Source: Polyangiaceae bacterium (lineage in GTDB: Bacteria > Myxococcota_A > Polyangia > Polyangiales > Polyangiaceae). From it: 64,000 nt of DNA. The notes beneath the pieces are model-generated. The model worked only from the letters and a program-made list of their open reading frames with translations, was not told where the DNA came from and searched no databases. The DNA lies in NCBI GenBank assembly GCA_965222375.1, contig CBDCTZ010000013.1, positions 1 through 64,000 of the forward strand, read 5' to 3'. Below, piece after piece: positions 23 to 45,275 of the stretch. Positions within the stretch are counted from its first letter, which is position 1. Every line of letters starts with the position of its first letter. Position numbers and translations under genes: made by a program.

Positions 23-245
23 GCCCCGCGGCGGACGCTCATGAGTCCGGCGCGGGGCGAGCCGTGGATCGCGCAAGCGCACCCTGGCGTCGACAGATTG
101 AGTCTGGCTAATGCTTCGCTGGCCTGCGGCGCAGCGCCAAACAGCGACGGGGTCGGCCGCTCACCCCGAACTCCATCCGGGCATGGACGCCTTCGGCGCC
201 GTCTGGCCCAGCGCTCGCATTAGCCAGCCAGTGACGTGGATGGTG
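23..245. other. Conserved structured non-coding segment, copy 1 (ncRNA or ssDNA structure)
   Basis: Hairpin GCCCCGCG/CGCGGGGC and long-range stem CTGGCTAATGC (104-114)/GCATTAGCCAG (217-227); repeated at 9698, 19541 and 37411. Confidence 0.6.
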
Positions 246-605
246 TCAGCCGCTCACGAGGCGTTGAAGCTTCTTCTTGGTGAGGAAGGCATCGATGAGT
301 TTTTTGATCACGTCCTTGTCCTCGTCGGGAAGTAGCTCGACCTCTTGGAACTGGCGAAGCAATTCCCTGTCCTTGAAGTCCGCTCGAGCGGCATCCTTGG
401 TGCAGCCCTCGAGCAAGTAGTCGGCGGAGACGTCGAGGGCGTCGGCAAGCCTTGCGAGGGTATCGGCCGAGGGGCGCGAAGCCTCGCGCTCATAGCGACC
501 GATGTGGTTGTAGTGAACGTCAACCAGCTCAGCGAGCTCGGCTTGGGACAGACCTCGTTGTTTGCGCAGCTGCCTGAGGCGTTTGGCGAATCCATCGTTG
601 GCCAT
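246..605 (-). CDS. XRE-family helix-turn-helix transcriptional regulator
   Basis: FAKRLRQLRKQRGLSQAELAELVDVHYNHIGRYER..PS..LARLADALDVSADYLL is a typical XRE HTH; start at ATG 605 is a choice (ORF track extends to 665). Confidence 0.9.
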   Translation of the reverse strand: MANDGFAKRLRQLRKQRGLSQAELAELVDVHYNHIGRYEREASRPSADTLARLADALDVSADYLLEGCTKDAARADFKDRELLRQFQEVELLPDEDKDVIKKLIDAFLTKKKLQRLVSG

Positions 606-770
606 GTAGCTGTCATGCGAGAGGAATGGATCCATAGCAAGCGTTGGTGGTGTAAATACAACCAAGTTTGAGGCTCAACTCGACTCTTTGCGTCAATTTT
701 CCCACTACAAGTGATGTATTTGCTCTTCTTGGCTACGAACGGCACGGCCCTGTCCTCGCAGCAGCTCTAG

Positions 771-2456
771 AGACCCGATCAAATTCTAGCGGCGGCGTCG
801 AAATACAAAGCAAGTTCGATCGCTTAGAAGCCAGGATCGACGCGCCGGGCGTGTAGTGATCAAACGGGGTCAGGAGGACCCCATGGAGATCTGGAAGGCG
901 CCGGTCGAGCTGTCGCGTGGTGAGAAGTTCATCGCAAAGCGATGTGCGAAACGCAGAGTATTCGTATTCCTGCGCGAGCTGCGACATAGGATTTTTGACG
1001 AAGAGATGCAGGCGAAGCTGACGGAGGCATATTCGCCCGTGGAGCGGGGGCGTGGTCGCGTCCCGCCTGCTCAACTCGGCCTTGCGATGTTGCTGCAGGC
1101 CGCGCTGCGTGTGCCCGACCACGAGGTGGTTGAGCTTACGTTGATGGATCGCCGCTGGCAAATGGTGCTCAACTGTGCGGGAATCGAAGTGCCGCTCTTC
1201 TCGCAAGGCACGTTTTACAACTTTCGCCAGCGCGTCATTGCGCATGGGCTCGACGAGCTGCTCTTCAACAAGACGGTCGAACTCGCACGCGAGACGGGCG
1301 GATTCAGTGCAACGCACCTGCGTGCTGCATTCGACGCCAGCCCACTATGGGGCGCGGGTCGCGTCGAGGACACCTTCAATCTCATCGGGCGCGCCTCGCT
1401 ACACGTCGTTCGCACGGCAGCGCGGCGGCTCGGTCAACCCGTCGACAAGGTCGCGGCTGCTGCGGGGATCCCAGTACTCAACGCCACCAGCATCAAGACA
1501 GGGCTCGACATCGACTGGGACGACCCTGGGGCGCGCACCAAGGCGCTCGGTCGACTGCTCAAGCAGGTACAGTCACTCGGCCGCTTTCTCGAAAAAGAGC
1601 TGACGAAACCGCTGAAAGAAGCGCCGCTGGCCGGGCAGTGGGCACTGGTGGAAAAAGCTCGTCTCGCAGGGACACCGAGCCCGATCCAGACGGGGACGGA
1701 GGGAGCCGGATCACACGCGGCGTGGCGAAGGACCGACGCATTAGCGTGAGTGACCCCGACATGCGTCATGGCCGCAAGAGCAAGAAGAAACGCATCGACG
1801 GCTACAAGCGACACATCGCGATACAGCTCGATACGCCCGGCATCATCTGCGCCGTCGCGATCACCCCCGCGAATCGTCCTGAACGTGTCGCTTCGGCAGA
1901 ATTACTCGAACAGTGCGGCTCCGTTTCAGAACTCTACATCGATCGAGGCTACCTTGGCGACGATGCGATCGAATCCCGTCGCGCCGAAGGAACAGAGGTT
2001 TTCTGCAAACCGTTTCCGTTGCGCAACGGCGGGCGCTTCACCAAGGCCGATTTCAAGCTCGATCTGGCTGCGGGAATCGCCCGTTGTCCCGAAGGCGTTG
2101 CGGTTAAAGCGAGCGCTGGCTCCGTCGCTCGCTTCCCAGCTGCCCGCTGCGATGTATGTCGCAGCCGCGACGACTGCACGCGCGCCGCCCCGGGGCGTGG
2201 CCGCAGCGTCACGCTACACCCCCATGAGCCCTTCCACATCCAGCTGCGCGAAAACGCCCGCACGCGCGAAGGCCGCGCCCGCCTTCGCAAGCGTACTGCC
2301 GTCGAACACAGCCTCGCGACCCTGCATAACCGCCAAGGCGACCGTGCTCGCTACCGTGGTCAGCGCAACAACCTCTTCGACCTCCGCCGGCACGCTGCTC
2401 TCAGCAACCTGAGCGTTATCGATCAGTTGCGAGTTGCCGCTTAAGTGGTCAGGCCC
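771..2456 (+). mobile_element. Insertion sequence, IS1182/IS5-like DDE type, copy 1
   Basis: Flanked by CTAG at 767-770 and 2457-2460 (likely target duplication); imperfect terminal inverted repeats AGACCCGATCAAATT vs GGGCCTGACCACTTA (right end, reverse complement). Confidence 0.75.
883..2444 (+). pseudogene. Frameshifted DDE transposase (IS1182/IS5-like)
   Basis: Split into ORFs 856..1749 and 1347..2444; has an extra A (~1652-1656) and extra G (~1669-1671) relative to the intact copy at 10557..12116; AGGAGG precedes ATG 883. Confidence 0.8.
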
Positions 2457-2518
2457 CTAGCGGTTGGGCGGAGCGACCACGACGGACGGTCCGATCTGGG
2501 CCGTGACGATCGCAGCCG

Positions 2519-2959
2519 TCAGCCTGCTTTTCGTGCGTACTCGTTGACGAGGGCCCGGACGGTTTCAATGATCTTGCGTTGTTGTTTACGGGGCAGCCGA
2601 CGAACGTCGTCGAAGGTGCGTTGAAGCTCACCAACGGGCCCTGGGCGACTTCTTTGTCTCGAACCGTTGAGGACGAGCAGGTCTTCGACGTGAGTGCCGA
2701 GAGCTTTTGCCATCGCGGGAAGCAGCTCAGAGCGTGGTGGTTTGTCACTCCATTCCCAGAACGCGATATTGGCGTGGGGCACGTCAAGGTGGCGGGCGAG
2801 CTCGATTTGGGTGAGACCGGCCGCTTTTCGAAGTGCGAGTAAGCGAGCTCCTTGCTTGGGCCTTGGCCCTTTTGCTGCTTTGGCTTTGCGCGGCACGGGG
2901 CCAGTGTACGGGGTGATCTCGGGTGACACGGGCTGACTGAGCTCCTGAGGCTTGCACAA
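2519..2959 (-). CDS. XRE-family HTH regulator, divergent from primase
   Basis: GARLLALRKAAGLTQIELARHLDVPHANIAFWE..PP..LPAMAKALG; start uncertain. Confidence 0.85.
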   Translation of the reverse strand: MCKPQELSQPVSPEITPYTGPVPRKAKAAKGPRPKQGARLLALRKAAGLTQIELARHLDVPHANIAFWEWSDKPPRSELLPAMAKALGTHVEDLLVLNGSRQRSRPGPVGELQRTFDDVRRLPRKQQRKIIETVRALVNEYARKAG

Positions 2960-2978
2960 TTCTCAGTTTACTGAGAAT
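2959..2978. promoter_or_regulatory. Putative operator palindrome between XRE and primase genes
   Basis: ATTCTCAGT-TT-ACTGAGAAT, perfect 9-bp inverted repeat in the divergent intergenic region. Confidence 0.55.
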
Positions 2979-3050
2979 CTCGGAGCATATCAACTGAGCG
3001 GAACACAAGTCGCACTTTTCGATTGACAGCCTTTTTCAAGGAGCAGCGCG

Positions 3051-6000
3051 ATGGCCCGAATTCCCGAAGAAGAAATCGAGCGGTTAAAGGCCCAGATTTC
3101 GCTTCAGCGCCTGGCTGAAGCGAAGGGCATCAAGCTCAAGAAACACGGGTCGGACTTGATCGGGCTGTGCCCGTTTCACGACGACCGAGAGCCGAGCCTG
3201 GTGATCACACCCGACAAGAACCTCTGGCACTGCCTGGGAGCGTGTCAGGCGGGTGGCACGGTGATCGACTGGGTGATGAAGGCCGAGGGCCTGAGCTTTC
3301 GACACGCGGTGGAAGTGCTGCGTAAAGACCTTCCATCCTTAGCTGCAGAGTCGCCGAAGCGACGGCCGCCGAAGTACGGCACGGCAAGGAAGCTGCCGGT
3401 GGTGGGAGCACAGAGCGCGGACAACGACGAGCTGCTGCGCGAGGTTGTCGCCTACTACCACCAAGCGCTGTTGGAGAGCCCGGAGGCGTTGGCGTACTTG
3501 GAAAAGCGAGGCATTCGAGACGAGGAGGCCATCGAGCGCTTCCAGCTTGGCTTCTCGAACCGCACGCTAGGCTACCGTTTGCCAGCGAAGAACCGCCACC
3601 GGGGCGGAGAGCTACGGAGGCGGCTGGCGGAGGTCGGTGTGTACCGACAGAGCGGTCACGAGCACCTAAATGGCTCGCTGGTCATTCCGGTCTTCGACGC
3701 CGAGGGTCAGGTGGTGGAGATGTACGGGCGTAAGATCACGCCTCGACTGCGTCCGGGGACACCAATGCACCTGTACTTGCCCGGCCCCCATCGCGGCGTC
3801 TGGAACCTCTCCGGCATTGCAGACGCCCGGGAAGTGATTCTTTGCGAAAGCCTGATCGACGCGCTGACCTTCTGGTGCGCAGGCTATCGGAACGTGACGA
3901 CGGCCTACGGCGTGGAGGGCTTCACCGATGAGTTGCGCACAGCACTGACGACGCAAGATGTCGAGCGCGTGCTGATCGCATACGATCGGGACGACGCCGG
4001 CGAGCGGGCGGCGGACAAGCTGTCACGAGAGCTGGCGGAGCTGGCAGTGGGCAGCGCGCGGGTGCTGTTTCCGAAAGGCATGGACGCGAACGAGTACGCG
4101 CTGAAGGTGGGCCCAGCGGCACAGAGCTTGGGCCTTTCGCTGCGGCAGGCAGAGTGGATCAGCGAGGGCAAACCACGGCCGGCTGCAGCCGAGCCGACTG
4201 AGTCGATCGAGCGACAAGCCACACAGCCTGCCGGCGCCAACGAAGCCGAGGTGGTGATCGTTGCGAAGCAGCCGCCAGCAAGTCCGCCCCCACCCCATCC
4301 TTCCTTAGCCGCCAATCCGAGCGTCGAGCCCGAGGTGACGGGCGATGACCTGGTGTTTCGATTTGGCGATCGACGTTGGCGAGTGCGCGTGGCGTTGAAG
4401 GGTGGCCCGGAACAACTGCGCACGAACCTGCACATCTCGCGAGCGGGCGGGGCGTTTCACGTCGACACGGTGGAGCTGTACTCGGCGAGGCAGCGCGGCG
4501 TCTTCACAAAGGAAGCGGCGGCAGAGCTGGGCCTGGAAGAGCGTGTGGTCAAGCGTGAGCTGGGCGCCGTGCTCCTCAAGCTCGAGGAGCGGCAAGAAGC
4601 CGAGCGCAAGGCGGCTGAGGCTGAGGCGAAGCCAGCTCAGATGGGCGATGTGGCTCGGAAGGCAGCACTGGAGCTGCTGCGAGATCCGAAATTGGTGGAG
4701 CGGATCTTGGAAGACTTCGGGCGTTGCGGAGTGGTTGGCGAGCAAACGAACAAACTCGTCGGCTACTTAGCTGCCACCAGCCGGAAACTGGATGAGCCGC
4801 TGGCGGTGATCATCCAGAGCTCGAGCGCGGCGGGCAAGTCGTCGCTGATGGACGCGGTGCTGTGTCTGATGCCCGAGGAGGAGCGCGTGCAGTACTCAGC
4901 GATGACGGGGCAGAGCTTGTTTTACATGGGCGAGAGCGATCTGGCGCACAAGATCTTGGCCATCGTCGAGGAGGAGGGCGCCGAGCGAGCGAGCTACGCG
5001 CTGAAGCTGCTGCAGAGCGAGGGCGAGCTGACCATCGCGAGCACGGGCAAAGATCCAGCGACGGGACGGCTGGTGACGCAGGAGTACCGGGTGCAGGGGC
5101 CGGTGATGATCTTCTTGACGACGACGGCGATCGAGGTAGACGAAGAGCTGCTCAACCGCTGCATCGTGCTGACGGTGGACGAGGGGCGGGAGCAAACGCG
5201 AGCGATCCACGAGCGTCAGCGACAGCTACGGACGCTGGAGGGAGTGAAGACCCGGCACGAGCGGGCACGCCTGCTGGAACTGCACCAGAACGCTCAGCGC
5301 CTTTTGAGGCCGCTTTCGGTGGTCAATCCGTATGCGGAGCAGCTGACGTTTCCAGATCATCGAACACGGATGCGTCGAGATCACACGAAGTACCTGGGTC
5401 TGATCGAGACGATCGCGCTGCTGCACCAGTACCAGCGGCCGGTGCAGGAGGTGGAGCATCGGGGAGCGAAGCTGAGGTATGTGGAGGTGACGCGAGAGGA
5501 CATCGAACTCGCGAACCGCCTGACCCGCGAGGTGCTGGGCCGGAGCCTGGACGAGCTGCCGCCACAAACACGGCGCTTGCTCGGCCTCGTCGACGCGCTG
5601 GTCGCCCAGGAGACGAAGCGGCTCGGCTTGAACCGATGCGACTATCGATTTAGCCGCCGAGAGCTGCGGGAGCACAGCGGCTGGGGCGACACGCAGCTGA
5701 AGGTGCACCTGGGGCGGCTGGCGGAGCTGGAGTACGTGCTGGTGCATCGTGGGCGTCAGGGTCAAAGCTACGTGTACGAGCTGTGTTGGAGCAGCGAGGA
5801 GGGCGCAGGCACATCGCTTGCGGGTCTCGTCGACGCGGAAGGACTCGATGCGTCGAGTACGACGCACACTTCGCGGGGCTCAGAGGCAACTTCGCGGGGG
5901 GCAGACCCCAACTTCGCGGGGGTCGGTCGGCCCCTGGTCGGCCCCCGGTCGGGGGGTGGTCGGGGTGGTGAAAACCGGGCGGCGCAGGAGCAAAACGGCT

Positions 6001-6104
6001 CGAATGGTGATCGCAACGCCGCGAGCGGCAAAAACGCACGTCGCGGGAACGGTCTGTCACAATCGTCGTACGCAAGTGGCGTCGTACAAGCACGGGGGCG
6101 CTGA
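3051..6104 (+). CDS. CHC2 zinc finger-Toprim DNA primase fused to P-loop NTPase/helicase-like and C-terminal winged-helix-like domains
   Basis: CPFHDDREPS..WHCLGAC zinc finger; CESLIDA, AYDRDDAG and KGMDANE Toprim motifs; SSSAAGKSSL Walker A-like and ILAIVEEEG Walker B-like; AAGGAG RBS. Confidence 0.9.
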   Translation: MARIPEEEIERLKAQISLQRLAEAKGIKLKKHGSDLIGLCPFHDDREPSLVITPDKNLWHCLGACQAGGTVIDWVMKAEGLSFRHAVEVLRKDLPSLAAESPKRRPPKYGTARKLPVVGAQSADNDELLREVVAYYHQALLESPEALAYLEKRGIRDEEAIERFQLGFSNRTLGYRLPAKNRHRGGELRRRLAEVGVYRQSGHEHLNGSLVIPVFDAEGQVVEMYGRKITPRLRPGTPMHLYLPGPHRGVWNLSGIADAREVILCESLIDALTFWCAGYRNVTTAYGVEGFTDELRTALTTQDVERVLIAYDRDDAGERAADKLSRELAELAVGSARVLFPKGMDANEYALKVGPAAQSLGLSLRQAEWISEGKPRPAAAEPTESIERQATQPAGANEAEVVIVAKQPPASPPPPHPSLAANPSVEPEVTGDDLVFRFGDRRWRVRVALKGGPEQLRTNLHISRAGGAFHVDTVELYSARQRGVFTKEAAAELGLEERVVKRELGAVLLKLEERQEAERKAAEAEAKPAQMGDVARKAALELLRDPKLVERILEDFGRCGVVGEQTNKLVGYLAATSRKLDEPLAVIIQSSSAAGKSSLMDAVLCLMPEEERVQYSAMTGQSLFYMGESDLAHKILAIVEEEGAERASYALKLLQSEGELTIASTGKDPATGRLVTQEYRVQGPVMIFLTTTAIEVDEELLNRCIVLTVDEGREQTRAIHERQRQLRTLEGVKTRHERARLLELHQNAQRLLRPLSVVNPYAEQLTFPDHRTRMRRDHTKYLGLIETIALLHQYQRPVQEVEHRGAKLRYVEVTREDIELANRLTREVLGRSLDELPPQTRRLLGLVDALVAQETKRLGLNRCDYRFSRRELREHSGWGDTQLKVHLGRLAELEYVLVHRGRQGQSYVYELCWSSEEGAGTSLAGLVDAEGLDASSTTHTSRGSEATSRGADPNFAGVGRPLVGPRSGGGRGGENRAAQEQNGSNGDRNAASGKNARRGNGLSQSSYASGVVQARGR
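5868..5963 (+). repeat. Iteron-like phased direct repeats in primase 3' end
   Basis: ACTTCGCGGGG at 5868, 5889, 5911 then GGTCGG at 5925, 5936, 5947, 5958. Confidence 0.7.
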
Positions 6105-6107
6105 GCG

Positions 6108-7211
6108 ATGCCGATCAAGCGCGGCAACAAGCAGCCCCCGCGTCCGATTGGTGATCCAAACGAGCCGGACGGGTTTTGGATTTGGTCGCAGCGCTTCTTG
6201 CAGTGGCTGCAGACGCGGAACTACTCGGCGCACACGGTGGAGAGCCGTCAGATCGGGCTGAGGCGCTTCGTGCAGTGGTGCGAGGCCCGCAACCTGTATC
6301 GACCGTCGCAGCTCACGAAGCCGATGCTGGAGCGTTACCAGAGGCACCTGTACCTGCTGCGGCGCCCGGACGGAGGCCCGCAGATGTCGTTTCGGACGCA
6401 GCACGTGATGCTGACGGCGGTGCGGCGCTTCTTTCGGTGGATGGTGAAGCAAAACGCCCTGCCCTCGAACCCTGCGAGCGAGCTGGAGCTTCCACGGCTG
6501 CCGCATCGATTGCCCCGGGACGTGCTGAGCGCAGAAGAAGTCGAGGAAGTGCTGTCCCAGGTGAACACCGCCACGGCGCTCGGGGTGCGAGACCGGGCGA
6601 TTTTGGAGCTGATGTACTCGACGGGGATCCGTCGCAGCGAGGTGACTGGGCTCAGCCTGAGCGATTTGGACGTGGAGCGTGGGACGCTGATGGTGCGTGA
6701 GGGCAAGGGGCAGCGAGATCGGATGTTGCCGGTGGGAGAGCGAGCGCTGGCCTGGGCGAAGCGTTACATCCGCGACGTGCGCCCCGAGCTGATGGTGATG
6801 CCCGATCCCGGCGCCCTCTTCCTAACGAACATGGGCGAGGCGCTGTTGCCCCCCGGGCTGTCGCAGAACATCCGGCGTTACGTGCGCAAAGCTGGCAAGC
6901 GTGGAGCGTGTCACGTGTTTCGGCATGCGATGGCCACGCACATGCTCGAGGGAGGCGCCGACGTGCGCTACGTGCAGGAAATGCTGGGGCACACGTCGCT
7001 GGAATCGACGCAGGTGTACACGCGAGTGAGCATCCGCAAGCTCAAAGCGATCCACGCGGCGACGCACCCGACGGCGCAGCCAGAGCGCCCGCTGGCCAAG
7101 ACGGCGGGACGTCGCGAGCCATCACGGCCACCGAGGGCGTCGCAGACGGCTACGGCAGAGAAATGCTCCTCGCCCTTAGCCGCCACGCAGCGCCGCGAGG
7201 ACGACGAGTAG
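6108..7211 (+). CDS. XerC/XerD-like site-specific tyrosine recombinase
   Basis: Catalytic set R (GIRRSE), K (REGKG), HxxR (CHVFRH), LGH, Y (TQVYT); N-terminal SAM-like region. Confidence 0.93.
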   Translation: MPIKRGNKQPPRPIGDPNEPDGFWIWSQRFLQWLQTRNYSAHTVESRQIGLRRFVQWCEARNLYRPSQLTKPMLERYQRHLYLLRRPDGGPQMSFRTQHVMLTAVRRFFRWMVKQNALPSNPASELELPRLPHRLPRDVLSAEEVEEVLSQVNTATALGVRDRAILELMYSTGIRRSEVTGLSLSDLDVERGTLMVREGKGQRDRMLPVGERALAWAKRYIRDVRPELMVMPDPGALFLTNMGEALLPPGLSQNIRRYVRKAGKRGACHVFRHAMATHMLEGGADVRYVQEMLGHTSLESTQVYTRVSIRKLKAIHAATHPTAQPERPLAKTAGRREPSRPPRASQTATAEKCSSPLAATQRREDDE

Positions 7212-7241
7212 CGGTCGCCGCGTGCACGCAATTGCCGCTCC

Positions 7242-7473
7242 GCCCCCCAGCGCGAGTCGCTCGCTCGGCGGTGCGCATAAGGCAGCCTTATGCGCACCGC
7301 CCGGCGTCATGGGGCTTGCACACCTGCGGTGGGCGGGTCAGGGGCTACGCCCCTACGCCCCCGATGGTCGCTACCCCGAAAGGTTGTAGCTGACGTCTGG
7401 CAAGCCCCACGCCGCCGGGTGCCCTCGCTCGCTAAACATAACAAGAGAATTATGTTTCCTCGCGCTGGGGGGC
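7242..7473. other. Folded region with two dif-like palindromes (candidate recombination site or origin), copy 1
   Basis: 15-bp outer inverted repeat 7242-7256/7459-7473; 35-bp palindrome 7267-7301 containing GGTGCGCATAA arms; AAACATAA-N8-TTATGTTT at 7434-7457. Confidence 0.65.
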
Positions 7474-7655
7474 TGCGCTCCCCGGTGTGCGTCGCGTGCA
7501 CGCCCCACTGCACGCGCTGGTGCCTGCGATGACGTCCCGGTCAGCGCGGCGGCCCCGCCCCGCCGCGCTGACCTCGTGGCGTCGTGGTGCGCCCGCCCGC
7601 CCCCACGCGATGCGACCTTGTTGCAAGCGGCCCCGACAACGGGCGGCTAGGTGCT

Positions 7656-7895
7656 ATGCTCCCTCTCGTGAACGCGCTCAAAGCACATGTGAAGAACGGG
7701 CAGATTGTCCTCGACGAACCGGCGGAACTCACCAATGGCATGCCCGTGACCGTGTATCTGTGCAACTCCGAGGGCGATTCGCTGAGCGACAAGGAGCGCG
7801 CCGAGTTGCATCGCTCAATTGAACGCGGTCTCGGGCAATTGGAGCGCGGCGAAGTCGTCGACGCCGACGAAGTGCTCGCGGAACTCGAGCGCTGA
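7656..7895 (+). CDS. Putative type II antitoxin (AF2212/DUF104-like N-terminus)
   Basis: ALKAHVKNGQIVLDEPAEL..GMPVTV with acidic C-terminus GEVVDADEVLAEL; directly upstream of a RelE/ParE-like gene; start uncertain. Confidence 0.65.
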   Translation: MLPLVNALKAHVKNGQIVLDEPAELTNGMPVTVYLCNSEGDSLSDKERAELHRSIERGLGQLERGEVVDADEVLAELER

Positions 7896-7897
7896 AC

Positions 7898-15776: not shown

Positions 15777-15779
15777 GCG

Positions 15780-37400: not shown

Positions 37401-37410
37401 TTTGCAGCCA

Positions 37411-37633
37411 GCCCCGCGGCGGACGCTCATGAGTCCGGCGCGGGGCGAGCCGCGCAACGCGCACGCGCACCCTGGCGTCGACAGAATGAGCCTGGCTAAT
37501 GCTTCGCTGGCCTGCGGCGCAGCGCCAAACAGCGACGGGGTCGGCCGCTCACCCCGAACTCCATCCGGGCATGGACGCCTTCGGCGCCGTCTGGCCCAGC
37601 GCTCGCATTAGCCAGCCAGTGACGTGGATGGTG
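37411..37633. other. Conserved structured non-coding segment, copy 4
   Basis: Closer to copies 1/2 than to copy 3 in sequence. Confidence 0.6.
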
Positions 37634-37639
37634 ACGCGG

Positions 37640-38014
37640 TCAGCTGGCTTTTCTGGCTGCTAGGAAGGCGTCTATGGTGCGCAGCAGCGCGTCCTGATCG
37701 CGCTTCGGCAGTTGGTCCATCATTTGGACCCGGCGCAGGAAACGCCGGTTTCCAATCGCCCCATTCTTCTTGGCGACCTTCACGCCGAGCAGCTCATCGG
37801 TGGAGACGCCCAGGGCGGACGCGAGACGTGCGACCACGTCGGCGTAAGGGCGAAGCTTGTTCCGCTCGTAGTCCGAAATCACGGCCTGGATCATTCCGAC
37901 CTTGGTCGCTAGCTCGACCTGCGTGAAGCCACGCTCTTTGCGAACGCGAGCCAGCCTGGAGCCGAAGGACTCACTGGAGCGCGAGGCTTTTCCGGAACGA
38001 GAGGTCCGCACCAT
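37640..38014 (-). CDS. XRE-family HTH regulator
   Basis: Few substitutions relative to 19770..20144. Confidence 0.9.
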   Translation of the reverse strand: MVRTSRSGKASRSSESFGSRLARVRKERGFTQVELATKVGMIQAVISDYERNKLRPYADVVARLASALGVSTDELLGVKVAKKNGAIGNRRFLRRVQMMDQLPKRDQDALLRTIDAFLAARKAS

Positions 38015-38136
38015 GAGCCACGAGTCTAAGTGCAGAACAAGAAACCTCCTTGACGAATACAGTGGAGCACTGTATTCGAAGAACAGTTGAAGTCAAGCAG
38101 TTTGCGCTTGACAGCCTTTTCGTCCTGGAGCGTGAG

Positions 38137-41100
38137 ATGGCGAGAGTAAGCGAGGAAGAAATCCGGGCTTTGAAGCGAGAGATTTCGGTGGAGCGACTCG
38201 CACAGGCCCGGGGCGTGACGCTGAAGAAGCACGGCTCGGACTTGATCGGGCTGTGCCCGTTTCACGACGACCGAGAGCCGAGCTTGGTGATTACGCCCGA
38301 GCGGAACCTCTGGCACTGCCTGGGTGCGTGCCAGGCGGGCGGGACGGTGATCGATTGGGTGATGAAGGCGGAGGGGGTGAGTTTTCGACACGCAGTCGAG
38401 GTGCTGCGCAAAGACCATCCCTCCTTAGCCGCAGAGCCGAGCAAGCGGCGGCCGGCGAAAAGGACGCTGCTGCCCAAGCTGCCTGCGGTGGTGGACACGA
38501 CGGCTTCGGACGCGGAGCTGATGGCGGAGGTGGTGGCCTACTACCAGCAGACGCTGCAGGAGAGTCCCGAGGCGCTGGCGTACCTGGAAAAGCGGGGGCT
38601 GCGAAACGACGAGGCCATCGAACACTTCCGTCTCGGCTTCGCGAACCGCACCCTGTCCTACCGGCTGCCGTCCCGCAACCAACGGACGGGAGCGGAGCTG
38701 CGAGCGGCGCTGGAGCGGATCGGGATCTTCCGACAGAGCGGGCACGAGCATTTGAACGGCTCCCTGGTGATCCCGATCTTCGATGCGTCGGACCGAGCGG
38801 TGGGCATGTACGGGCGGAAGATCACCTCGAGCCTGCGCAAAGGGACTCCCCGGCACCTGTATTTGCCTGGCCCCCATCGCGGCGTCTGGAACCTTTCTGG
38901 CATCGAAGGCGCCCGGGAAGTGATCTTGTGCGAGAGCCTGATCGATGCGCTGACTTTCTGGTGCGCCGGCTTCCGGAACGTCACGACGGCCTACGGCGTG
39001 GAGGGCTTCACGGAAGAGATCCGAGTTGCATTGGCGGCCCAGGGCGTCGAGCGAGTGTTGATTGCCTACGATCGCGACGACGCCGGCGATCGCGCGGCGG
39101 ATAGGCTCGCCCGCGAGCTGGCGGAGCTGGAAGTGGGCAGCGCGCGGGTCTTGTTTCCGAAAGGCATGGACGCGAACTCCTACGCGCTGAAGGTGACGCC
39201 GGCATCGCAGAGCTTAGGCTTGGCGCTGCGCCAAGCGCAGTGGATGCACAAAGGCAAACCGCGAAGCGTTGCAGGTGTCATCGACACGCGTGCCGAGCCC
39301 GCACCCGACATCGAGCAGGTGGAAGCGACAGAGACACCTGCCCCGAACGTCCCGACGCCGCCGGATGCCGAAGCTCATCCCACCTTAGCCGCAGAGCCGC
39401 TTGCAGAAGCGCTGCAGTCCGAGCCGGCGCCTGCGAGCGCATCCGCGCCACCCATGCCCGAAGCGAAGACGTTGGAGGCCGAGAGCGAGGGTGATGACCT
39501 GGTTTTCCGATTTGGCGATCGACGCTGGCGAGTGCGCGGCCTCGGCAAGAACGCCGGCCCCGAGCAGCTGCGCGTAAACCTCCTCGTGGCCCGTGACGGC
39601 GGGGGATTTCACGTGGACACGCTGGAGCTGTACGCGGCGCGGCAGCGCGCGGTGTACGTGAAGCTGGCAGCGGAAGAGCTGGGGCTCGAAGAGCGTGTGG
39701 TGAAACACGAGCTCGGCCAGGTGCTGTTGGCCTTGGAGGAGCGGCAGGAAGCGGAGAAGCTCGCCGCGCAGCAGAAGCAGCAGCGCGCGAAGCTGAGCGA
39801 CGCGGATCGCAACGCGGCGCTGAAGCTGCTGCGCTCGCCGGGGCTCTGCGATCAGCTGCTGGAGGATTTCCGCCTGATGGGTGTTGTGGGCGAGGAAACG
39901 AACAAACTCGTGGGCTACTTAGCTGCCACGAGCCGCAAGCTGGATGAGCCGCTGGCGGTGATCATCCAAAGCTCGAGTGCGGCGGGAAAGTCGTCACTGA
40001 TGGACGCGGTGCTGAGCCTGATGCCGCTCGAAGAACGCGTGCAGTACTCGGCGATGACGGGGCAGAGCCTGTTTTACATGGGCGAGACGGATCTGGCGCA
40101 CAAGATCTTGGCCATCGTCGAAGAAGAGGGCGCGGAGCGCGCGAGCTACGCGCTCAAGCTCCTGCAAAGCGAGGGTGAGCTCACGATCGCGAGCACGGGC
40201 AAAGATCCAGCGACGGGGCGACTGGTGACGCAGGAGTACCGGGTGGCCGGCCCGGTGATGATCTTTTTGACGACGACGGCGATCGAGGTGGACGAAGAGC
40301 TTTTGAATCGCTGCATCGTCTTGACCGTCGACGAAGGCCGCGAGCAAACGCGAGCGATCCATGAGCGCCAGCGCCAGGCGCGGACGCTCGGTGGCGTAGT
40401 GAGCCGGCAGGAGCGGCGCCGGTTGACGTTGCTGCACCAGAACGCCCAGCGCTTGCTCAGGCCACTTTCGGTGGTGAATCCCTTTGCGGAGCAGCTGACG
40501 TTTCCCGATCACCGCACGCGGATGCGACGAGATCACACGAAGTACCTGGGTCTGATCGACGCGATTGCGCTGCTGCACCAGTACCAGCGTCCGGTCCACG
40601 AGGTGGAGCACCGGGGAAACAAGCTTCGGTACGTGGAGGTGACGAAGGAAGACATCGTCTTGGCGAACCGCCTCACTCGCGAGGTGCTGGGCCGAAGCCT
40701 CGACGAGCTGCCACCGCAAACCCGGCGCCTCTTGGGCCTAGTGGACGCGCTGGTGACGGCAGAGACGAAGCGTCTGGGGCTAGATCGGTGCGACTATCGA
40801 TTTAGCCGCCGAGAGCTGCGGGAGCACAGCGGCTGGGGCGACACGCAGCTGAAGGTGCACCTGGGGCGACTGGCGGAGCTGGAGTACGTGCTGGTGCACC
40901 GCGGTCGCCAGGGCCAAAGCTACGTGTACGAGCTGTGCTGGAGCAGAGAGGACGGTGCAGGCACATCTCTGGCGGGTTTGGCGGACGCAGAACAGCTCGA
41001 TGCATCATCTACGATTTCAACTTCGCGGGGGTGCGAGGCAACTTCGCGGGGGTCAGACCCCAACTTCGCGGGGGGTGGTCGGCCCTCGGTCGGGGGGCAG

Positions 41101-41265
41101 TCGGGGGGTGGTCGGGGCCATGAAATGGCCGCGTCGCAGCAGGAAAGCTCCTCGAATCGTGATCGAAAGCACGGCAGCGACGAAAACACGCGTCGCGGGA
41201 ACGGAATTTCTTCGCCGTCGTACGTGAGAGGTGTCGTAGCGGCTCGTCGAGTGGACGTGAGCTGA
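38137..41265 (+). CDS. CHC2-Toprim primase / P-loop NTPase fusion
   Basis: Same motifs; start at MARVSEEE by alignment with the other copies. Confidence 0.9.
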   Translation: MARVSEEEIRALKREISVERLAQARGVTLKKHGSDLIGLCPFHDDREPSLVITPERNLWHCLGACQAGGTVIDWVMKAEGVSFRHAVEVLRKDHPSLAAEPSKRRPAKRTLLPKLPAVVDTTASDAELMAEVVAYYQQTLQESPEALAYLEKRGLRNDEAIEHFRLGFANRTLSYRLPSRNQRTGAELRAALERIGIFRQSGHEHLNGSLVIPIFDASDRAVGMYGRKITSSLRKGTPRHLYLPGPHRGVWNLSGIEGAREVILCESLIDALTFWCAGFRNVTTAYGVEGFTEEIRVALAAQGVERVLIAYDRDDAGDRAADRLARELAELEVGSARVLFPKGMDANSYALKVTPASQSLGLALRQAQWMHKGKPRSVAGVIDTRAEPAPDIEQVEATETPAPNVPTPPDAEAHPTLAAEPLAEALQSEPAPASASAPPMPEAKTLEAESEGDDLVFRFGDRRWRVRGLGKNAGPEQLRVNLLVARDGGGFHVDTLELYAARQRAVYVKLAAEELGLEERVVKHELGQVLLALEERQEAEKLAAQQKQQRAKLSDADRNAALKLLRSPGLCDQLLEDFRLMGVVGEETNKLVGYLAATSRKLDEPLAVIIQSSSAAGKSSLMDAVLSLMPLEERVQYSAMTGQSLFYMGETDLAHKILAIVEEEGAERASYALKLLQSEGELTIASTGKDPATGRLVTQEYRVAGPVMIFLTTTAIEVDEELLNRCIVLTVDEGREQTRAIHERQRQARTLGGVVSRQERRRLTLLHQNAQRLLRPLSVVNPFAEQLTFPDHRTRMRRDHTKYLGLIDAIALLHQYQRPVHEVEHRGNKLRYVEVTKEDIVLANRLTREVLGRSLDELPPQTRRLLGLVDALVTAETKRLGLDRCDYRFSRRELREHSGWGDTQLKVHLGRLAELEYVLVHRGRQGQSYVYELCWSREDGAGTSLAGLADAEQLDASSTISTSRGCEATSRGSDPNFAGGGRPSVGGQSGGGRGHEMAASQQESSSNRDRKHGSDENTRRGNGISSPSYVRGVVAARRVDVS

Positions 41266-42419
41266 TGCCGCCCAAGCAGCGCAAGGGACCGAAGCCGCCG
41301 CGAGTCATCGGCAACCTCGACGATCCCGATGGTTTTGGCGTCTGGGTGCGGCGCTATTTGAATTGGCTGGCGGTGCGCAACTACTCACCGCGCACCGTGA
41401 CGAACGCGGAATCGAGCCTGTCGCTCTTCGTGGTGTGGTGCAGCGCACGGAGCCTGACCAGGCCGTCAGAGCTGACGAAGCCGATCCTGGAGCGCTACCA
41501 GCGGCATCTGTACCACCTGCGGCGGCCTGACGGTCGGCCGCAGCTGTCGTTTCGGTCGCAGCATGTGCGGCTAAGTGCAGTGCGGGGCTTCTTCCGCTGG
41601 CTGGTGAAACAGAACGCTCTGTCTGCCAACCCCGCCAGCGAGCTCGAGCTACCGCGATTGCCGATGCGTTTACCCCGGGACGTGCTGACCGTCTCGGAGG
41701 TCGAGCGCGTCATGGCGCAGCCGGACACGCGGACGGCAGTGGGCGTGCGTGACCGGGCCATCCTGGAGGTCCTGTACTCAACCGGAGTGCGTCGCAGCGA
41801 AGTGGTGAGCTTGCGGCTGAGCGACGTCGACGTGGAGCGCGGCACGATCATGGTGCGGGAGGGCAAGGGTCGAAAAGACCGGATGGTGCCGGTGGGCGAG
41901 CGAGCGCTGGCCTGGGCGGCGCGTTACGTGCGGGACGTGCGCCCCGAACTCATGATGCCGCCCGATCCCGGAGCGCTCTTTTTGACGACGCTGGGCGAGC
42001 AGATCACCCCGGACTGGCTGACGCAGGCCGTGCGCCGGTACGTGAAGGACGCGGACATTGGCAAGAGCGGGGCATGTCACATTTTTCGGCACACGATGGC
42101 GACGCTGATGCTCGAGGGGGGCGCCGACGTGCGTTACATCCAGGAAATGCTGGGCCACGTGCACCTGGACTCGACGCAGGTGTACACGCGAGTGAGCATC
42201 CGCAAACTCAAAGCGATCCACGAAGCGACGCATCCGGGAGCGAAGCTGGAGCGGCTCGCAAAGACGACGGGCGAGCGTGAGCAAGACGCGAAGCACTCGC
42301 TGGAGACGGCCATCGGCGAGTCGGGCGCATCACGGTCACCAAAGGCGCCGCTGACGGCGACGGCAGAGAAACGCTCCTCGCCCTTAGCCGCTGATTTGCG
42401 ACGCGAGGACAGCGAGTAG
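41265..42419 (+). CDS. XerC/XerD-like tyrosine recombinase
   Basis: One visible amino-acid difference (E/N) from 23401..24555. Confidence 0.93.
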   Translation: MPPKQRKGPKPPRVIGNLDDPDGFGVWVRRYLNWLAVRNYSPRTVTNAESSLSLFVVWCSARSLTRPSELTKPILERYQRHLYHLRRPDGRPQLSFRSQHVRLSAVRGFFRWLVKQNALSANPASELELPRLPMRLPRDVLTVSEVERVMAQPDTRTAVGVRDRAILEVLYSTGVRRSEVVSLRLSDVDVERGTIMVREGKGRKDRMVPVGERALAWAARYVRDVRPELMMPPDPGALFLTTLGEQITPDWLTQAVRRYVKDADIGKSGACHIFRHTMATLMLEGGADVRYIQEMLGHVHLDSTQVYTRVSIRKLKAIHEATHPGAKLERLAKTTGEREQDAKHSLETAIGESGASRSPKAPLTATAEKRSSPLAADLRREDSE

Positions 42420-42449
42420 CGGTCGGCGCTGGGACACAATTGCCGCTCC

Positions 42450-42630
42450 GCCCCCCGGCGCGAGTCGCTCGCTCGGCGGTGCGCATAATGCTGCATTATG
42501 CGCACCGCCCGGCGTCATGGGGCTTGCAACGCTGAGCTCGACGCGGCGGCTCGCTAGCAAGCCCCTCGCCGCCGGGTGCCCTCGCTCGCTAAACATAACA
42601 AGGGAATTATGTTTCCTCGCGCCGGGGGGC
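42450..42630. other. Folded region with dif-like palindromes, copy 4
   Basis: Identical to 24586-24766. Confidence 0.65.
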
Positions 42631-42838
42631 TGCGCTCCACAGTTGGCGGCGTGGTGCGAGTCACGATGTACGACGCCGGCGCATCGCGTGCACCGTCCCG
42701 GCGAACGCGGCGGCCCCGCCCCGCCGCGCTCGCCTCATGGCGTCGTGGAACGGACCCACCCGCCCCTCGCGGTGCGGTCCGGCCTGCGTGGGTCCCTCCC
42801 ACGCAGGCCTCAGTGCGTCCATTACCCCTCGCTGCGCG

Positions 42839-43681
42839 CTACTCGGCGAACAGCTCGTCGGTGGTCTTCACGGTGACGGCTTTGCGCGTCCAGGCTCGGA
42901 GTGTTTCGGCGTCATTGCATTCGAGGATGCGTTGCCGCTGCTCGTCGGAAACGGCCAGCTCGCGCGACTCGAGCACGTCGAGCAAGGCTTGAGCCCGCCC
43001 ATCGCTGAACGACCGCTTCAGTGACTTGTCCTGGTACTCGTGTGTTTGCGGGAGCATCTCGAAAGCCTTCCTGGCAGCTTCGCTGAGCGCCGAGATAATG
43101 AGATCATAGTACACCGCGAAGCGTTGTGCACCGAGCTGAGAACTCGCTCGTGCTGCAATGTCAGCCAAGCGCACCGCGTCGTCGATAGCTGTGTGGCCGT
43201 GGGCAATGGCGCTGAGGACAGCGAGCTCGGGTGCCCGCTTGGCCTGGTCCAGGTCGTCGACCAATGGGACGCCCTCCGGACCGATGACGAAGGGCAACAG
43301 GCTGGCCCGCTCACCCAGCCGAATGGGTCGAGCCGCCCAGGTGGCCACCTTGGCGTCCGGAGCGACCACGAGCAACTCAACGGGACAGCGAATGCGAGCA
43401 CGCAGATTGGCCACGTAGACCGGCCATGTGAACGGCTTGTCGTCGTCGGGGGCGAGCTGGACCTCGACGACGATCCCCATCACGGCAATGCCGTCGACGA
43501 GCAGCACGACCAAGTCCGCGTAGCGAGCCGCGGGAGCCACATCGGTCAGCTCAGCGCTCTCGAGGCGTGCTTCGGTGTACGCCGGCAACTCGACGCCGAG
43601 AGCATCACGCAAAAGCTCTGCAGCCAACTCTGGACGATTGCGGAACAACAAGAGCAGGGCCTCGTGCAGGAACGACGGCAT
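42839..43681 (-). CDS. Rpn-like PD-(D/E)XK nuclease-fold protein
   Basis: One visible amino-acid difference from 24975..25817. Confidence 0.65.
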   Translation of the reverse strand: MPSFLHEALLLLFRNRPELAAELLRDALGVELPAYTEARLESAELTDVAPAARYADLVVLLVDGIAVMGIVVEVQLAPDDDKPFTWPVYVANLRARIRCPVELLVVAPDAKVATWAARPIRLGERASLLPFVIGPEGVPLVDDLDQAKRAPELAVLSAIAHGHTAIDDAVRLADIAARASSQLGAQRFAVYYDLIISALSEAARKAFEMLPQTHEYQDKSLKRSFSDGRAQALLDVLESRELAVSDEQRQRILECNDAETLRAWTRKAVTVKTTDELFAE

Positions 43682-43905
43682 GCCCCGAACCTAGACCCTT
43701 CTCTTTTTAGCCGCCAGAAATCACGCCTCGAAACGCATGTGCGCATGCAGTCTCGCGTCGACCAAAAAGCGCGTGTAGCCTCAAACACGCGTCAGGGGAT
43801 TTTCGCTGCCACGCGGCTCCCCGCATCAGGTCGTTGAGTTTCTAAGTAGCGATACGCGCCCGAGAAATCGAGGCTGCGCGTACGACGTTTGCGTCCGACT
43901 CATGT

Positions 43906-44874
43906 TTCACGGGGAAGGAGAGCGATGTCGAGGTTGGGCTGACGTACTTCGGGAAGCGGTTTCTCAGTACGCATCTGAATCGGTGGGTGTCGCCTGATCC
44001 TCTTGAGGTGCACGTTGGGGGCAGTGGCGACCTGAACGTCTATGCGTATGTCTCCGGACGGACGCTGAAGAATGTGGATCCACTTGGACTGCAGTCCAAC
44101 GAAGGGGGAACTGGTCAGGGCAACGCTGCGCCCGAGGATCTGAACAAGGGTACTCCGACCCGTGCCAAACCTCCTCGGCCTGCGCCAGCAGGACCTGACA
44201 CTGGGTCACGTGGTGCTGGCGGTGGCGGTGCGGGCACGTATCAGCAGCCGGTGAACGCGAGCATGCCGGAGGCAGACCTGCGACCTGGTGCAGGAGGGGT
44301 CTCGAGCACGTTGTACGGTGGCACACGAGGAGCGGGTGGAACATCGCATGGTGGACCGGCCATTCCGAAGGCCAGTCAGATGCCAACGGCGACAGACGTT
44401 GCACTGATGACTCCGTATGGCCCGAACCTCGTCGTGGCCGGTGCCGCGCGAGGCGTGGTTGCGGCGAGCCGTTTGGGAGCACGAGCGTTCAAGGCGGCGA
44501 ACGAGGCGAAGCTCATGGAGCGAATCGCCGTTGCCGAGCGACGCATTATGCAACAGCTTCGAGAGTTGCATGCGGACGAACGTGGCTCGTTGGGTCGCGG
44601 GGGAAGACAGCAGCGTTTACGGGAGCTCGCAAATGATCCGAATGTGTCGAAGGCAGACCGCGGTTGGATAAGACAGGAACTTAACCAGATCGAGCGAGGC
44701 AGACGCATCAACATTCGCAACCCACCCGGCAAGGATTTGGCGCACAGTCGTGGCAGAGAAGCGGCGAAAGGCTTCGACCATGTGCAGTCGCCATCGAATC
44801 TCCAGGATAGAGTCTTGCATCGAACCCAGCACAAATTCGACAATTTCGGAAAGAAAAATAAGCTGCGACGATAG
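43906..44874 (+). CDS. Orphan Rhs C-terminal module with HNH-like tip (resembles polymorphic toxin type 8)
   Basis: FTGKE..FGKRFLSTHLNRWVSPDPL..DPLG; tip RGWIRQE..IRNPPGKDLAH.RGREAAKGF..LQ...LHRTQHKFD. Confidence 0.75.
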   Translation, partial: FTGKESDVEVGLTYFGKRFLSTHLNRWVSPDPLEVHVGGSGDLNVYAYVSGRTLKNVDPLGLQSNEGGTGQGNAAPEDLNKGTPTRAKPPRPAPAGPDTGSRGAGGGGAGTYQQPVNASMPEADLRPGAGGVSSTLYGGTRGAGGTSHGGPAIPKASQMPTATDVALMTPYGPNLVVAGAARGVVAASRLGARAFKAANEAKLMERIAVAERRIMQQLRELHADERGSLGRGGRQQRLRELANDPNVSKADRGWIRQELNQIERGRRINIRNPPGKDLAHSRGREAAKGFDHVQSPSNLQDRVLHRTQHKFDNFGKKNKLRR

Positions 44875-44891
44875 TGTGAGAGGCGAGGGCA

Positions 44892-45275
44892 ATGATTGTC
44901 AGCGACAAAGAACGGGAATCCGTGACTGCGCTTGCCGGCGACAAGCGCTACCGCTACTTCATCAAGCGTGTTGTCGATACCGGAGTAGTTTGGGGCTTGT
45001 GGCAGAATGGTTGGGCGCTGGCGACAACAGAGAGTGGCGAACAGGTGTTTCCACTCTGGCCCGCCAAGGAATTTGCCAGTGCTTGCGCAATGGGTGACTG
45101 GTCATCGTACGCACCGGAAGAGATAGACCTGGAATCACTTATTGATGATTTGGCTCAAAGACTTGCAGACAGTGGGGTCTTGGCGGGGGTGTTTCCAACT
45201 CCGAGCGAGCAGGGCGTGACGCCCGAACTCGACGGATTGGTGGCTGACCTACGGGCGGAGATGGGGAGATACTAA
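44892..45275 (+). CDS. DUF2750-like putative immunity protein
   Basis: KRYRYFIKRVVD...VWGL...GW..FPLWPAKEFA..W..Y.P..I; GAGGCGAGG upstream. Confidence 0.75.
   Translation: MIVSDKERESVTALAGDKRYRYFIKRVVDTGVVWGLWQNGWALATTESGEQVFPLWPAKEFASACAMGDWSSYAPEEIDLESLIDDLAQRLADSGVLAGVFPTPSEQGVTPELDGLVADLRAEMGRY

Follow-up and report, generated by a model that had tools for sequence, protein, structure and literature searches.

Rhs and other polymorphic toxins decide which neighbouring cells are killed and which are tolerated, and the tips of polymorphic toxins are known to be exchanged and displaced. By what means a new tip is joined to a resident toxin body is the question raised by the stretch of DNA analysed here (64,000 nucleotides, hereafter the window), the first 64 kb of contig C13 in the genome of a Polyangiaceae bacterium (10.56 Mb in 16 contigs, 64% GC). 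The window holds four copies of one 6.5-kb element, with genes for a primase-helicase and a tyrosine recombinase, set among Rhs core ends, tips and putative immunity genes. Judging from its junctions and gene content, we find it rather likely that this is an integrative, probably self-replicating mobile element specialised in the 3′ end of polymorphic toxin genes, where it would install tips.

Element copies and their junctions with Rhs genes

Self-BLAST, repeat finding and junction alignment delimited the four copies, whose ends all lie within 3 nt of those given in a preliminary description made from the sequence alone. Copies 1 and 2 (type 1) are 99.96% identical and are 1.7 kb longer than copies 3 and 4 (type 2) only because both hold the same insertion sequence (IS). 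Copies 3 and 4 share 92.6% identity overall in a mosaic pattern, with 100% over ~40600–43800 and 60–90% elsewhere, and the two types are 76–82% identical to each other. The neighbourhood is also as that description had it: a tip/immunity pair lies directly upstream of copies 2–4, copy 1 follows the last bases of an immunity gene (21 nt identical to the end of the 9263–9685 open reading frame, ORF), alignments place a start-less Rhs core end and a differing tip behind all four copies, and the order at 31162–45275 is Rhs, tip A, immunity gene A, element, tip and immunity gene. The window starts at the contig end, and the sequence upstream of copy 1 is invisible. Across the genome there are nine copies in at least three places: four in the window, two near the end of contig C5 and, on C9, three more, of which one is truncated by the start of the contig. 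None of the eight recombinase genes is disrupted, and their occurrence as eight copies inside repeated elements differs from housekeeping XerC/XerD, which is single-copy at dif. More distant recombinase paralogs (34–40% identity) are found elsewhere in the genome.

The array was compared with the known features of an Rhs/YD-repeat polymorphic toxin locus (core domain, DPxGL boundary, start-less core-end fragments, immunity genes); core domain, boundary and start-less fragments with orphan tips are all found in the window. DPxGL-type motifs mark the boundary before Rhs C-terminal tips. The window Rhs protein matches TIGR03696 with 56.3 bits (cut-off 32.5) at residues 1542–1627 and contains a YD repeat (E = 9e-5); its core end occupies 35857–36039, and tip A starts after DPLGL at ~36040. 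The core ends behind the four copies comprise 50–73 codons, are 70–80% identical to Rhs residues ~1560–1632 and close in DP(L/M)GL, with unrelated tips and small ORFs next. Start-less core-end fragments with tips number four in the window, with more on C5 and C9; those behind elements in this genome lack an in-frame start, and DP(L/M/V)GL followed by unrelated sequence was found in 13 of the 13 core ends of the genome that reach that position. Five full-length Rhs paralogs of this class are present, three of which (the one on C13 and two on C9) are followed by elements and two of which (C11 and C14) are not. The element-free C11 and C14 loci share the downstream flanks of the arrays, which indicates that the arrays were inserted between the Rhs body and its old flank.

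The right-hand junctions are closely confined. Behind the right end, GACCACTTTCTTTGG is common to all five type-1 copies, which diverge from the following base onwards, each continuing into its own tip, and the switch from element to tip sequence falls within one interval of at most 8 nt in every type-1 copy. The core sequence in the window, CTTTGG, corresponds to the F-G codons of YFGKR, ~120 nt before DPLGL. On C9, three junctions were compared: Rhs to tip X, in a gene broken a few codons later by an IS21, right end to tip X′ and right end to tip Y. The first two are identical from TTTGG on and the two right-end junctions are identical up to TTTGG, so that only CTTTGG is common to all three, beside the similarity expected of homologous coding sequence. 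A 3.2-kb IS21-family IS (C9:175878-179088), with nine near-identical full-length copies in the genome and an apparent AGCACG target duplication, interrupts an Rhs core end a few codons past the proposed crossover.

Comparable junction sets occur in distant hosts. In a Dormibacteraeota metagenome-assembled genome (MAG; loci L064–L066), two 100%-identical units of 7644 bp stand head to tail; the repeat starts at an 11-bp core and spans the tip, the following ORFs and the element backbone, and exactly 11 bp, and nothing else, are shared by the junctions before unit 1, between the units and at another contig end, where a different tip stands behind the same element (L066/L065). In a Verrucomicrobiae MAG (L070/L072), a 17-bp core, which encodes WPNRDP, is common to the Rhs junction and to three right-end junctions, with different sequence on each side of it. 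These sets, read as attL, attP-like and attR sites with a short common core, favour the action of a site-specific recombinase, of which they would be the mark. Cores of 6–17 bp seem too short for RecA homologous recombination. The full-length Rhs paralogs of this genome show a corresponding limit: in each of the 10 pairs, identity falls off at the core, from 77–92% in the 242 nt upstream to 54–71% between core and DPLGL (222/242 versus 74/136 in the extreme pair, C14/C9B), which indicates that the swapped module begins ~120 nt before the classical DPxGL boundary. Type-2 copies, along with all three copies of a genome of the same genus (G005), carry 45 nt more Rhs-like sequence than type-1 copies, and the opening bases of a core end lying behind an element vary with the element type, not with the tip.

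Near-duplicate units indicate on which side the cargo lies. The one such pair readable in full, on C9, is 95.7% identical throughout tip X, immunity gene and element and differs downstream. The tandem units of L066 likewise share the upstream cassette at 100% identity and differ downstream, and copies 1 and 2 of the window differ downstream too; of the cassette that precedes copy 1 no more than 21 nt can be read, and these are compatible with a shared upstream cassette. That units share their upstream cassettes, together with the dependence of the core-end start on element type, agrees with a circular form whose right end runs through the core into the cargo tip.

From the anatomy, distribution, junction sets and unit boundaries, all observed directly, we propose the following mechanism. 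In a free circular form, the right-end block would be joined via the short core to the rest of the core end, a tip and an immunity gene, the tip and immunity gene being the cargo of the circle. At the core, the recombinase would carry out strand exchange with the matching codons of a resident Rhs gene, whose body would from then on continue into the newly arrived tip and immunity gene, with the element behind them, and the old tip and immunity gene would end up start-less behind the right end. Arrays would grow by repeated rounds or by integration into the att sites of resident elements. The primase-helicase would replicate the circle, the repressor would exert control, and there would be a route between cells. 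A circle of tip, immunity gene and element recombining into the Rhs core had been suggested in the preliminary description; the junction sets and the tandem core-tip-immunity-element units support this, though the circle itself is a deduction. Its suggestion that the primase-helicase replicates the circle fits the MCM-like helicase domain described below, replication again being deduced. Two other transposing units were rejected: one with its cargo downstream, made of element, core end, tip and immunity gene and inserting after an immunity gene, since the left junction has no core in common with the sequence behind the terminal immunity genes and near-duplicate units share upstream and not downstream cassettes; and a cargo-less circle inserting into a core end, as no left end has an Rhs body directly upstream.

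The Dormibacteraeota elements extend this picture. At L066/L065 an ORF opens inside the right end, with a signal-peptide-like leader that is in frame with the tip. The targets there would be small secreted toxin-like proteins, and a displaced tip would stay expressible. The leader-tip ORFs (L066:12838-13524, L065:6583-7236 and L066:4885-5880) have no Rhs shell and no Pfam match. Elements might pick up the displaced tip on leaving and so carry old tips to new hosts. More speculatively, and as a way round the difficulty of the sharp left end treated below, an element might sometimes leave with its right-hand cassette, circularise exactly at the left-end hairpin and thereby load the displaced tip as cargo.

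Gene content and distribution

Each element consists, in order, of a left-end block, a helix-turn-helix (HTH) repressor gene, a primase-helicase gene, a recombinase gene, a variable region and a right-end block (Table 1). The left-end block (~224 bp, opening with a 14-bp GC-rich hairpin) is the best-conserved part, 86–100% identical among all copies next to ~50% in neighbouring sequence. In copy 4 its predicted DNA fold reaches −74.5 kcal/mol (z −3.4), with two long inverted repeats, and Rfam gave no match in 36700–45400 at E up to 1. The block is more conserved than the adjoining genes; terminator, origin and recombination site are candidate roles. The repressor gene sits in a variable stretch, and homologues on the minus strand upstream of the primase gene were found in 48 sources. 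PHROG E-values were 3e-21 and 1e-8 for the two HTH genes of copy 2, and the copy-4 repressor ORF has gene-like GC content by codon position.

The primase-helicase measures 1017–1073 amino acids (aa) across elements and is 78% identical between copies 2 and 4; the copy-4 gene likely starts at the ATG at 38137. Pfam and NCBIfam identify the N-terminal half as a DnaG-type primase, comprising zinc ribbon, catalytic core and Toprim domain. The C-terminal half carries a Walker A-like AAGKS and an EEE motif and is 54–87% identical across 20 sequences from many phyla; the ESM Atlas links the protein to PF27228-bearing 'primase' clusters. No PDB chain matched the helicase half by sequence. A structural model of it (predicted local distance difference test 76) retrieved MCM subunits as all of the top 50 Foldseek matches, at E-values of 5e-10 to 5e-7 and a TM of only ~0.4, suggesting an MCM-like AAA+ helicase domain.

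The recombinase, 71% identical between copies 2 and 4, comprises an N-terminal SAM-like domain and a Phage_integrase catalytic domain (PF00589, E = 1e-38; also PF13495 and PF02899) and matches NF002331 with 436.7 bits (cut-off 371). Invariant in five diverse recombinases are TG.RR.E, R176/R177, K201, H272-x-x-R275, H298 and Y307, which we take to be the catalytic R-K-H-R-H-Y motif. Among the element ORFs scanned with Pfam, PHROG and NCBIfam, no capsid, terminase, relaxase or conjugation family was matched, in agreement with the earlier claim that the element has no capsid, relaxase or conjugation genes.

The variable region contains two ~100-aa ORFs in type-1 copies and a 280-aa minus-strand ORF in type-2 copies. 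The ORF pair is conserved in G005 and at L010, L015, L022 and L039; its second member matches ParE weakly (E = 0.016, below the cut-off), and L018 has a clear ParE in its place. Variable-region genes of relatives include ParE, DUF5615/PIN, NYN or HicB, and we read the region as one that houses genes of the addiction type. The frame opposite the 280-aa ORF is only 30% identical, and neither this ORF nor a 119-aa ORF had a family match in Pfam, PHROG or NCBIfam. After the variable region, all copies converge on the right-end block (~200 bp). A TACGA-type motif lies 12–22 nt before the junction in many lineages (the window, e.g. 43880–43905; G005; L070–L072), and an ATGTTYAC motif near the junction in Myxococcota type-2 and Verrucomicrobiae elements provides an in-frame ATG in the latter and is one base out of frame in the window. 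No consistent recombinase binding site emerged from the TACGA-type motif and small palindromes spanning some of the junctions.

The preliminary description had called for a search for homologues and their flanks. Among 40 relatives, six had full-length-type primase homologues (at least 55% identity); the remaining matches were chromosomal DnaG at ~30% identity. In G005 one Rhs gene is followed by three elements, each with a core end behind it, and this whole island is absent from the syntenic site of the present genome. We further scanned public assemblies, one genome per species, and the best 80 of 166 confirmed matches gave 74 loci, with recombinases 44–77% identical to that of the window. 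Their labels cover Myxococcota, Acidobacteriota, Verrucomicrobiota, Gammaproteobacteria, Chloroflexia, Dormibacteraeota, Actinomycetes, Planctomycetota, Bacteroidia and Alphaproteobacteria (Erythrobacter). The primase gene lies directly upstream of the recombinase gene in 78 of 79 evaluable cases. With an iterated hidden Markov model (HMM) built from the core ends of this genome, on which the counts depend, a plus-strand Rhs core end was detected within 3 kb downstream of the recombinase in 28/49 evaluable cases and a core end within 5 kb upstream of the primase in 28/41. The repressor-primase-recombinase module is thus spread across phyla, patchily, and tied to Rhs core ends. In a set of 2.9 million viral contigs the helicase occurred in only two, both with Rhs core ends upstream.

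This tie upholds the Rhs part of the earlier model, whose restriction to Rhs genes proved too narrow, as some relatives sit at non-Rhs toxin-like genes. We scanned 96 ORFs of at least 140 aa from 18 loci without a downstream and 11 without an upstream core end. C-termini of downstream ORFs lacking a core end included a Pesticin-type lysozyme, an M23 peptidase, DUF2380 and a weak Tox-REase-7 match; ORFs behind elements without a detectable core end are L018:5327-6700, L036:7063-7833, L062:11639-12991 and L059:10497-12254. One upstream protein among the loci without a core-end match carried RHS repeats. From these sequence matches, the element family may serve several toxin scaffolds.

The cassettes of the window itself have few recognisable families. 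Tip A matches DNase_NucA_NucB weakly (E = 0.004, below the cut-off), and besides the Ntox8 domain of tip 4 no Pfam match was reported for the remaining tips or the small L066/L065 ORFs. A small ORF stands behind each window tip, only one of them with a family (DUF2750); putative immunity genes 1–3 had no family match (gene 2 in Pfam only, the others also in NCBIfam). Homologues of immunity gene A, at no more than 48% identity, were found in 36 of 300 genomes of the order; these were too distant to trace cassette A, which yielded no informative second context. GC content at third codon positions is 0.59–0.70 in tips and immunity ORFs, 0.77 in Rhs and 0.79–0.82 in primase and recombinase genes, and cassette composition differs from both the host Rhs gene and the element backbone.

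The Rhs bodies also vary. The C11 paralog (L094:10908-18815, minus strand; 2636 aa) has the domain set of Tc-toxin B/C-type proteins (SpvB-TcB-TcC), with SpvB (E = 3e-25), TcdB_toxin_midN (E = 9e-29) and FG-GAP_3, and ends in a DUF3990 tip. The window Rhs is without the SpvB part: ~730 N-terminal residues of the C11 paralog are missing, and homology begins at 31155. Upstream, 27442–31160 contains a YhgA/Rpn-like Transposase_31 gene (29877–30851) and IS remnants. Since these stand where the N-terminal part is gone, the window Rhs copy may be 5′-truncated.

The IS in copies 1 and 2 (1.69 kb, ends CTAGAG...CCCCTAG) occupies the same site in both, and identical copies are found on C5, C8, C14, C15 (two) and C16; the split transposase in copy 1 may be a sequencing error. 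Downstream of the arrays, the same sequence, 86–94% identical and beginning sharply at GGTGTRTTGCG, lies 34–46 nt after the last immunity stop codon at 27442–28373, 45322–46253 and the C11 locus. It belongs to a transposon-like unit with an rve plus Mu-transposase-C protein (45378–48002) and an IstB-like ATPase (47935–48546), and a minus-strand rve ORF (27654–29009) overlaps it. The rest of the window (48969–64000) holds ordinary chromosomal genes, for a TPR protein, a response regulator, RelA/SpoT, a HemN-like radical SAM enzyme, TrmFO, topoisomerase I, DprA and a GDPD phosphodiesterase.

Table 1. Coordinates of the element copies, toxin cassettes and related features in the window.
Feature	Position	Strand	Basis or remark
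Cassette end upstream of copy 1	1..21	+	identical to 9676-9696 (end of 9263-9685 ORF)
Element copy 1, type 1, IS-bearing	22..8397	+	ends from junction alignment
IS (DDE_Tnp_1 / DUF772 transposase) in copy 1	767..2460	+	Pfam; transposase split into two ORFs
Start-less core end + tip 1	8398..9351	+	tblastn, 80% identity to Rhs residues 1578-1632
Putative immunity gene 1	9263..9685	+	by position after tip; ORF overlaps tip, start uncertain
Element copy 2, type 1, same IS at 10441-12132	9697..18069	+	self-BLAST, junction alignment
Left-end block, copy 2	9697..9920	.	GC-rich hairpin at start
HTH (cI/RstR-like) repressor, copy 2	9921..10340	-	PHROG transcriptional-regulator family
Second HTH gene, copy 2	12191..12631	-	PHROG transcriptional-regulator family
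Primase-helicase, copy 2	12723..15776	+	Zn_ribbon_DnaG, DNAG_N, Toprim as in copy 1 (Pfam)
Tyrosine recombinase, copy 2	15780..16883	+	Phage_integrase, E 1e-38 on identical copy-1 protein
Two ~100-aa ORFs, copy 2	17256..17567 and 17570..17878	+	possibly ParDE-like toxin-antitoxin pair
Right-end block, copy 2	17866..18069	.	ends in GCGTACGACGTTTGCGTCAGA
Start-less core end + tip 2	18070..19068	+	junction alignment
Putative immunity gene 2	18861..19457	+	ORF list; start uncertain
Element copy 3, type 2	19540..26041	+	self-BLAST, junction alignment
Start-less core end + tip 3	26042..27025	+	TIGR03696 partial match, E 8e-5
Putative immunity gene 3	27036..27407	+	ORF list
Rhs protein, 1863 aa	31162..36753	+	TcdB_toxin_midN, FG-GAP, RHS core domain (Pfam)
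Putative immunity gene A	36750..37400	+	ORF list
Element copy 4, type 2	37410..43905	+	self-BLAST, junction alignment
Left-end block, copy 4	37410..37633	.	14-bp GC-rich hairpin, then second long inverted repeat
HTH repressor (RstR/cI-like), copy 4	37640..38014	-	PHROG E 9e-16; NF041951 E 6.5e-19, below cut-off
Primase-helicase, copy 4	38050..41265	+	Pfam; TIGR01391 E 9e-47
XerC-like tyrosine recombinase, copy 4	41265..42419	+	start overlaps primase stop codon
119-aa ORF	42517..42876	+	only N-terminal part conserved in type-1 copies and G005
280-aa ORF, type-2 variable region	42839..43681	-	53% identity in L033 (minus strand), 60% in C5 copy
Right-end block, copy 4	43700..43905	.	all copies converge
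Start-less core end + tip 4 (Ntox8)	43906..44874	+	PF15545 E 7e-12
Putative immunity gene 4 (DUF2750)	44892..45275	+	PF11042 E 2e-25

Alternative explanations

Several observations weigh against an element that travels as a circle with its cargo. The assembled contigs of four metagenome runs from one study contained no circle, excision product or empty allele; joints in these contigs (e.g. 36032 to 37408 and 43973 to 45322) reflect paralogous cassettes and are uninformative on circles or empty alleles. A single run search found no RNA runs with window sequence. The genome is a metagenome assembly in which the array reaches a contig end, and some copies are decaying, the primase gene having two in-frame stops in a C5 copy and one in the cut C9 copy. 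In 21 of the 49 evaluable cases the HMM detected no Rhs core end within 3 kb downstream, and L040 has only unrelated genes there, for TPR and transporter proteins. Terminal cassettes abut the transposon-like flank sharply in three loci, which the model does not explain.

The left end is a further difficulty. It is nucleotide-sharp against seven unrelated upstream sequences, lies 9–82 nt after the preceding stop codon and shares no repeat with the right junction, and the model leaves unexplained how the backbone gains new cargo at an exact base. In distant lineages, an all-against-all BLAST meant to place the left ends recovered nothing but the beginning of the repressor coding sequence. Backbones are mosaic through gene conversion, which makes their near-identity weak evidence of whole-unit descent.

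Such sharp boundaries, found at the left end as well as where the right-end block begins, would suit an integron-like platform, a reading that we regard as unlikely. Mobile cassettes of right-end block, core end, tip and immunity gene would here be moved in trans by the recombinase, the backbone (left end to variable region) would be a separate element inserting upstream of the right-end block, and that block would be the leader and recombination site of a cassette, not an element end. At L044 and L054, solo right-end blocks of ~165 nt, whose 5′ limit is fixed, stand before core ends with no element body, and at L022 two 98%-identical backbones adjoin different cassettes; both facts also count against joint travel of backbone and cargo, although the solo blocks may be non-autonomous cassettes or precise deletions. 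The recombinase does match integron-integrase models, but far below their cut-offs (TIGR02249, 120 bits versus 265; NF011946, 80 versus 435). In this genome, moreover, no right-end block stands alone, all eight right-end matches lying within elements, and the left end and right-end-block start share no core. Every array unit comes with a recombinase and a primase of its own, something for which an integron would have no need, and the tandem units of L066 include the backbone at 100% identity.

We consider it quite improbable that the element is a mere passenger, a selfish insertion for which the core end is a safe landing site, with tips moving by RecA-dependent recombination in the core, a route put forward for enterobacteria, and the element duplicated together with cassettes by unequal crossing-over. 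Unequal crossing-over must occur among core ends that form 150-nt direct repeats of 70–85% identity and elements that form 6.5-kb repeats; the mosaic copies show active gene conversion, and relatives contain orphan arrays without elements (L030, L098). Against this, breakpoints coincide to within 8 nt at the edge of homology in 5/5 type-1 copies and in the C9 triple, the unit boundaries of L066 share only 11 bp, and an Rhs body, which a landing without cargo would have left there, lies directly upstream of the left end in 0 of 8 readable left ends. That the arrays are mis-joined copies of one dispersed repeat is highly improbable: this is a metagenome assembly with three element-bearing regions touching contig ends and with copies 1 and 2 nearly identical, yet short-read contigs from four runs match unique cassettes exactly, one bridging the junction of immunity gene 4 and flank, and the same architecture appears in 74 independent assemblies.

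Relation to known systems and significance

An integrative element that installs tips can be set beside the C-terminal displacement model, which describes a full Rhs gene followed by strings of start-less core ends and tips, an incoming tip that joins the core and pushes the old tip downstream, and a circular intermediate of core fragment and tip that undergoes homologous recombination anywhere in the core (Jackson et al, 2009; PMC2935791, as far as its available text goes). The units described here differ in that each has a tyrosine recombinase and a primase-helicase, and their breakpoints lie at one short core ~120 nt before DPxGL. [quoted passage not shown] As described there, an rAID array has a single recombinase and consists mainly of orphan immunity genes, and that part of the text mentions neither a primase-helicase nor attachment to a toxin body; the arrays studied here have a recombinase and primase per unit, a full tip readable from an Rhs body, and hosts of other phyla.

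With integrons the element has in common an XerC/D-related recombinase, arrays of promoter-less cassettes and a hairpin at the cassette boundary. It departs from them in falling short of the integrase models, in repeating the recombinase in each unit and in a crossover that lies within coding sequence and fuses protein domains. Islands that target tRNA genes, like P4-like and phage-inducible chromosomal island (PICI)-like satellites, integrate at the 3′ end of a gene, for which they supply a replacement. The element resembles P4-like and PICI-like satellites in its integrase, divergent cI-type repressor and primase-helicase, in having no structural genes, and in an att core that lies in a conserved gene, the 3′ part of this gene recurring at the far junction. 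Here, unlike in those satellites, the replacement end is a different toxin domain with an immunity gene, not a copy, so that the toxin of the host would be altered by integration, and an MCM-like helicase is fused to a DnaG-type primase. Helper-packaging genes (small terminase, capsid-size and redirecting functions) had no PHROG or Pfam match among the element ORFs.

Integrase-like genes associated with Rhs have been reported in the bee-gut bacteria Snodgrassella and Gilliamella (Steele et al, 2017; PMC5727410) and XerC/D genes beside polyimmunity loci (Zhang et al, 2012; PMC3482391), and both papers suggest a recombinase role in toxin-gene capture. In their available portions neither describes an element, a junction, a primase or a mechanism, and they are set beside the element here by description. 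A Neisseria paper considered as a precedent was set aside, as the part available concerns only dif sites near vgrG clusters. In our search of full texts, supplements excluded, no publication describing a primase-recombinase element among Rhs arrays came up; comparable XerC/D neighbourhoods may be listed in Additional File 1 of Zhang et al (2012).

We advance a wider reading only tentatively. Self-replicating toxin-tip shuttles, each loaded with a toxin C-terminal domain and its immunity gene, would exist in at least 10 phyla, a dedicated tyrosine recombinase swapping tips in frame at a short core of Rhs/Tc-BC-like shells and small secreted toxin-like proteins, with a right end that encodes the secretion leader in one lineage; such shuttles would provide C-terminal displacement with the vehicle and the enzyme that it lacks, and would drive toxin diversification and kin discrimination in general. 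The 2009 displacement model came without a circle-forming mechanism and an integrase, and the element, if it acts as we propose, would fill that gap. Tip exchange would then be an infectious, recombinase-driven event with a defined DNA site, and the process could be tested with the recombinase, a 200-bp right end and a core-end fragment. The fusion of an MCM-like helicase to a DnaG-type primase is of interest as a compact replication module. If the proposal is true, orphan arrays would record past invasions, and the elements would form a new class of mobile element that, on integrating, alters a host protein in frame.

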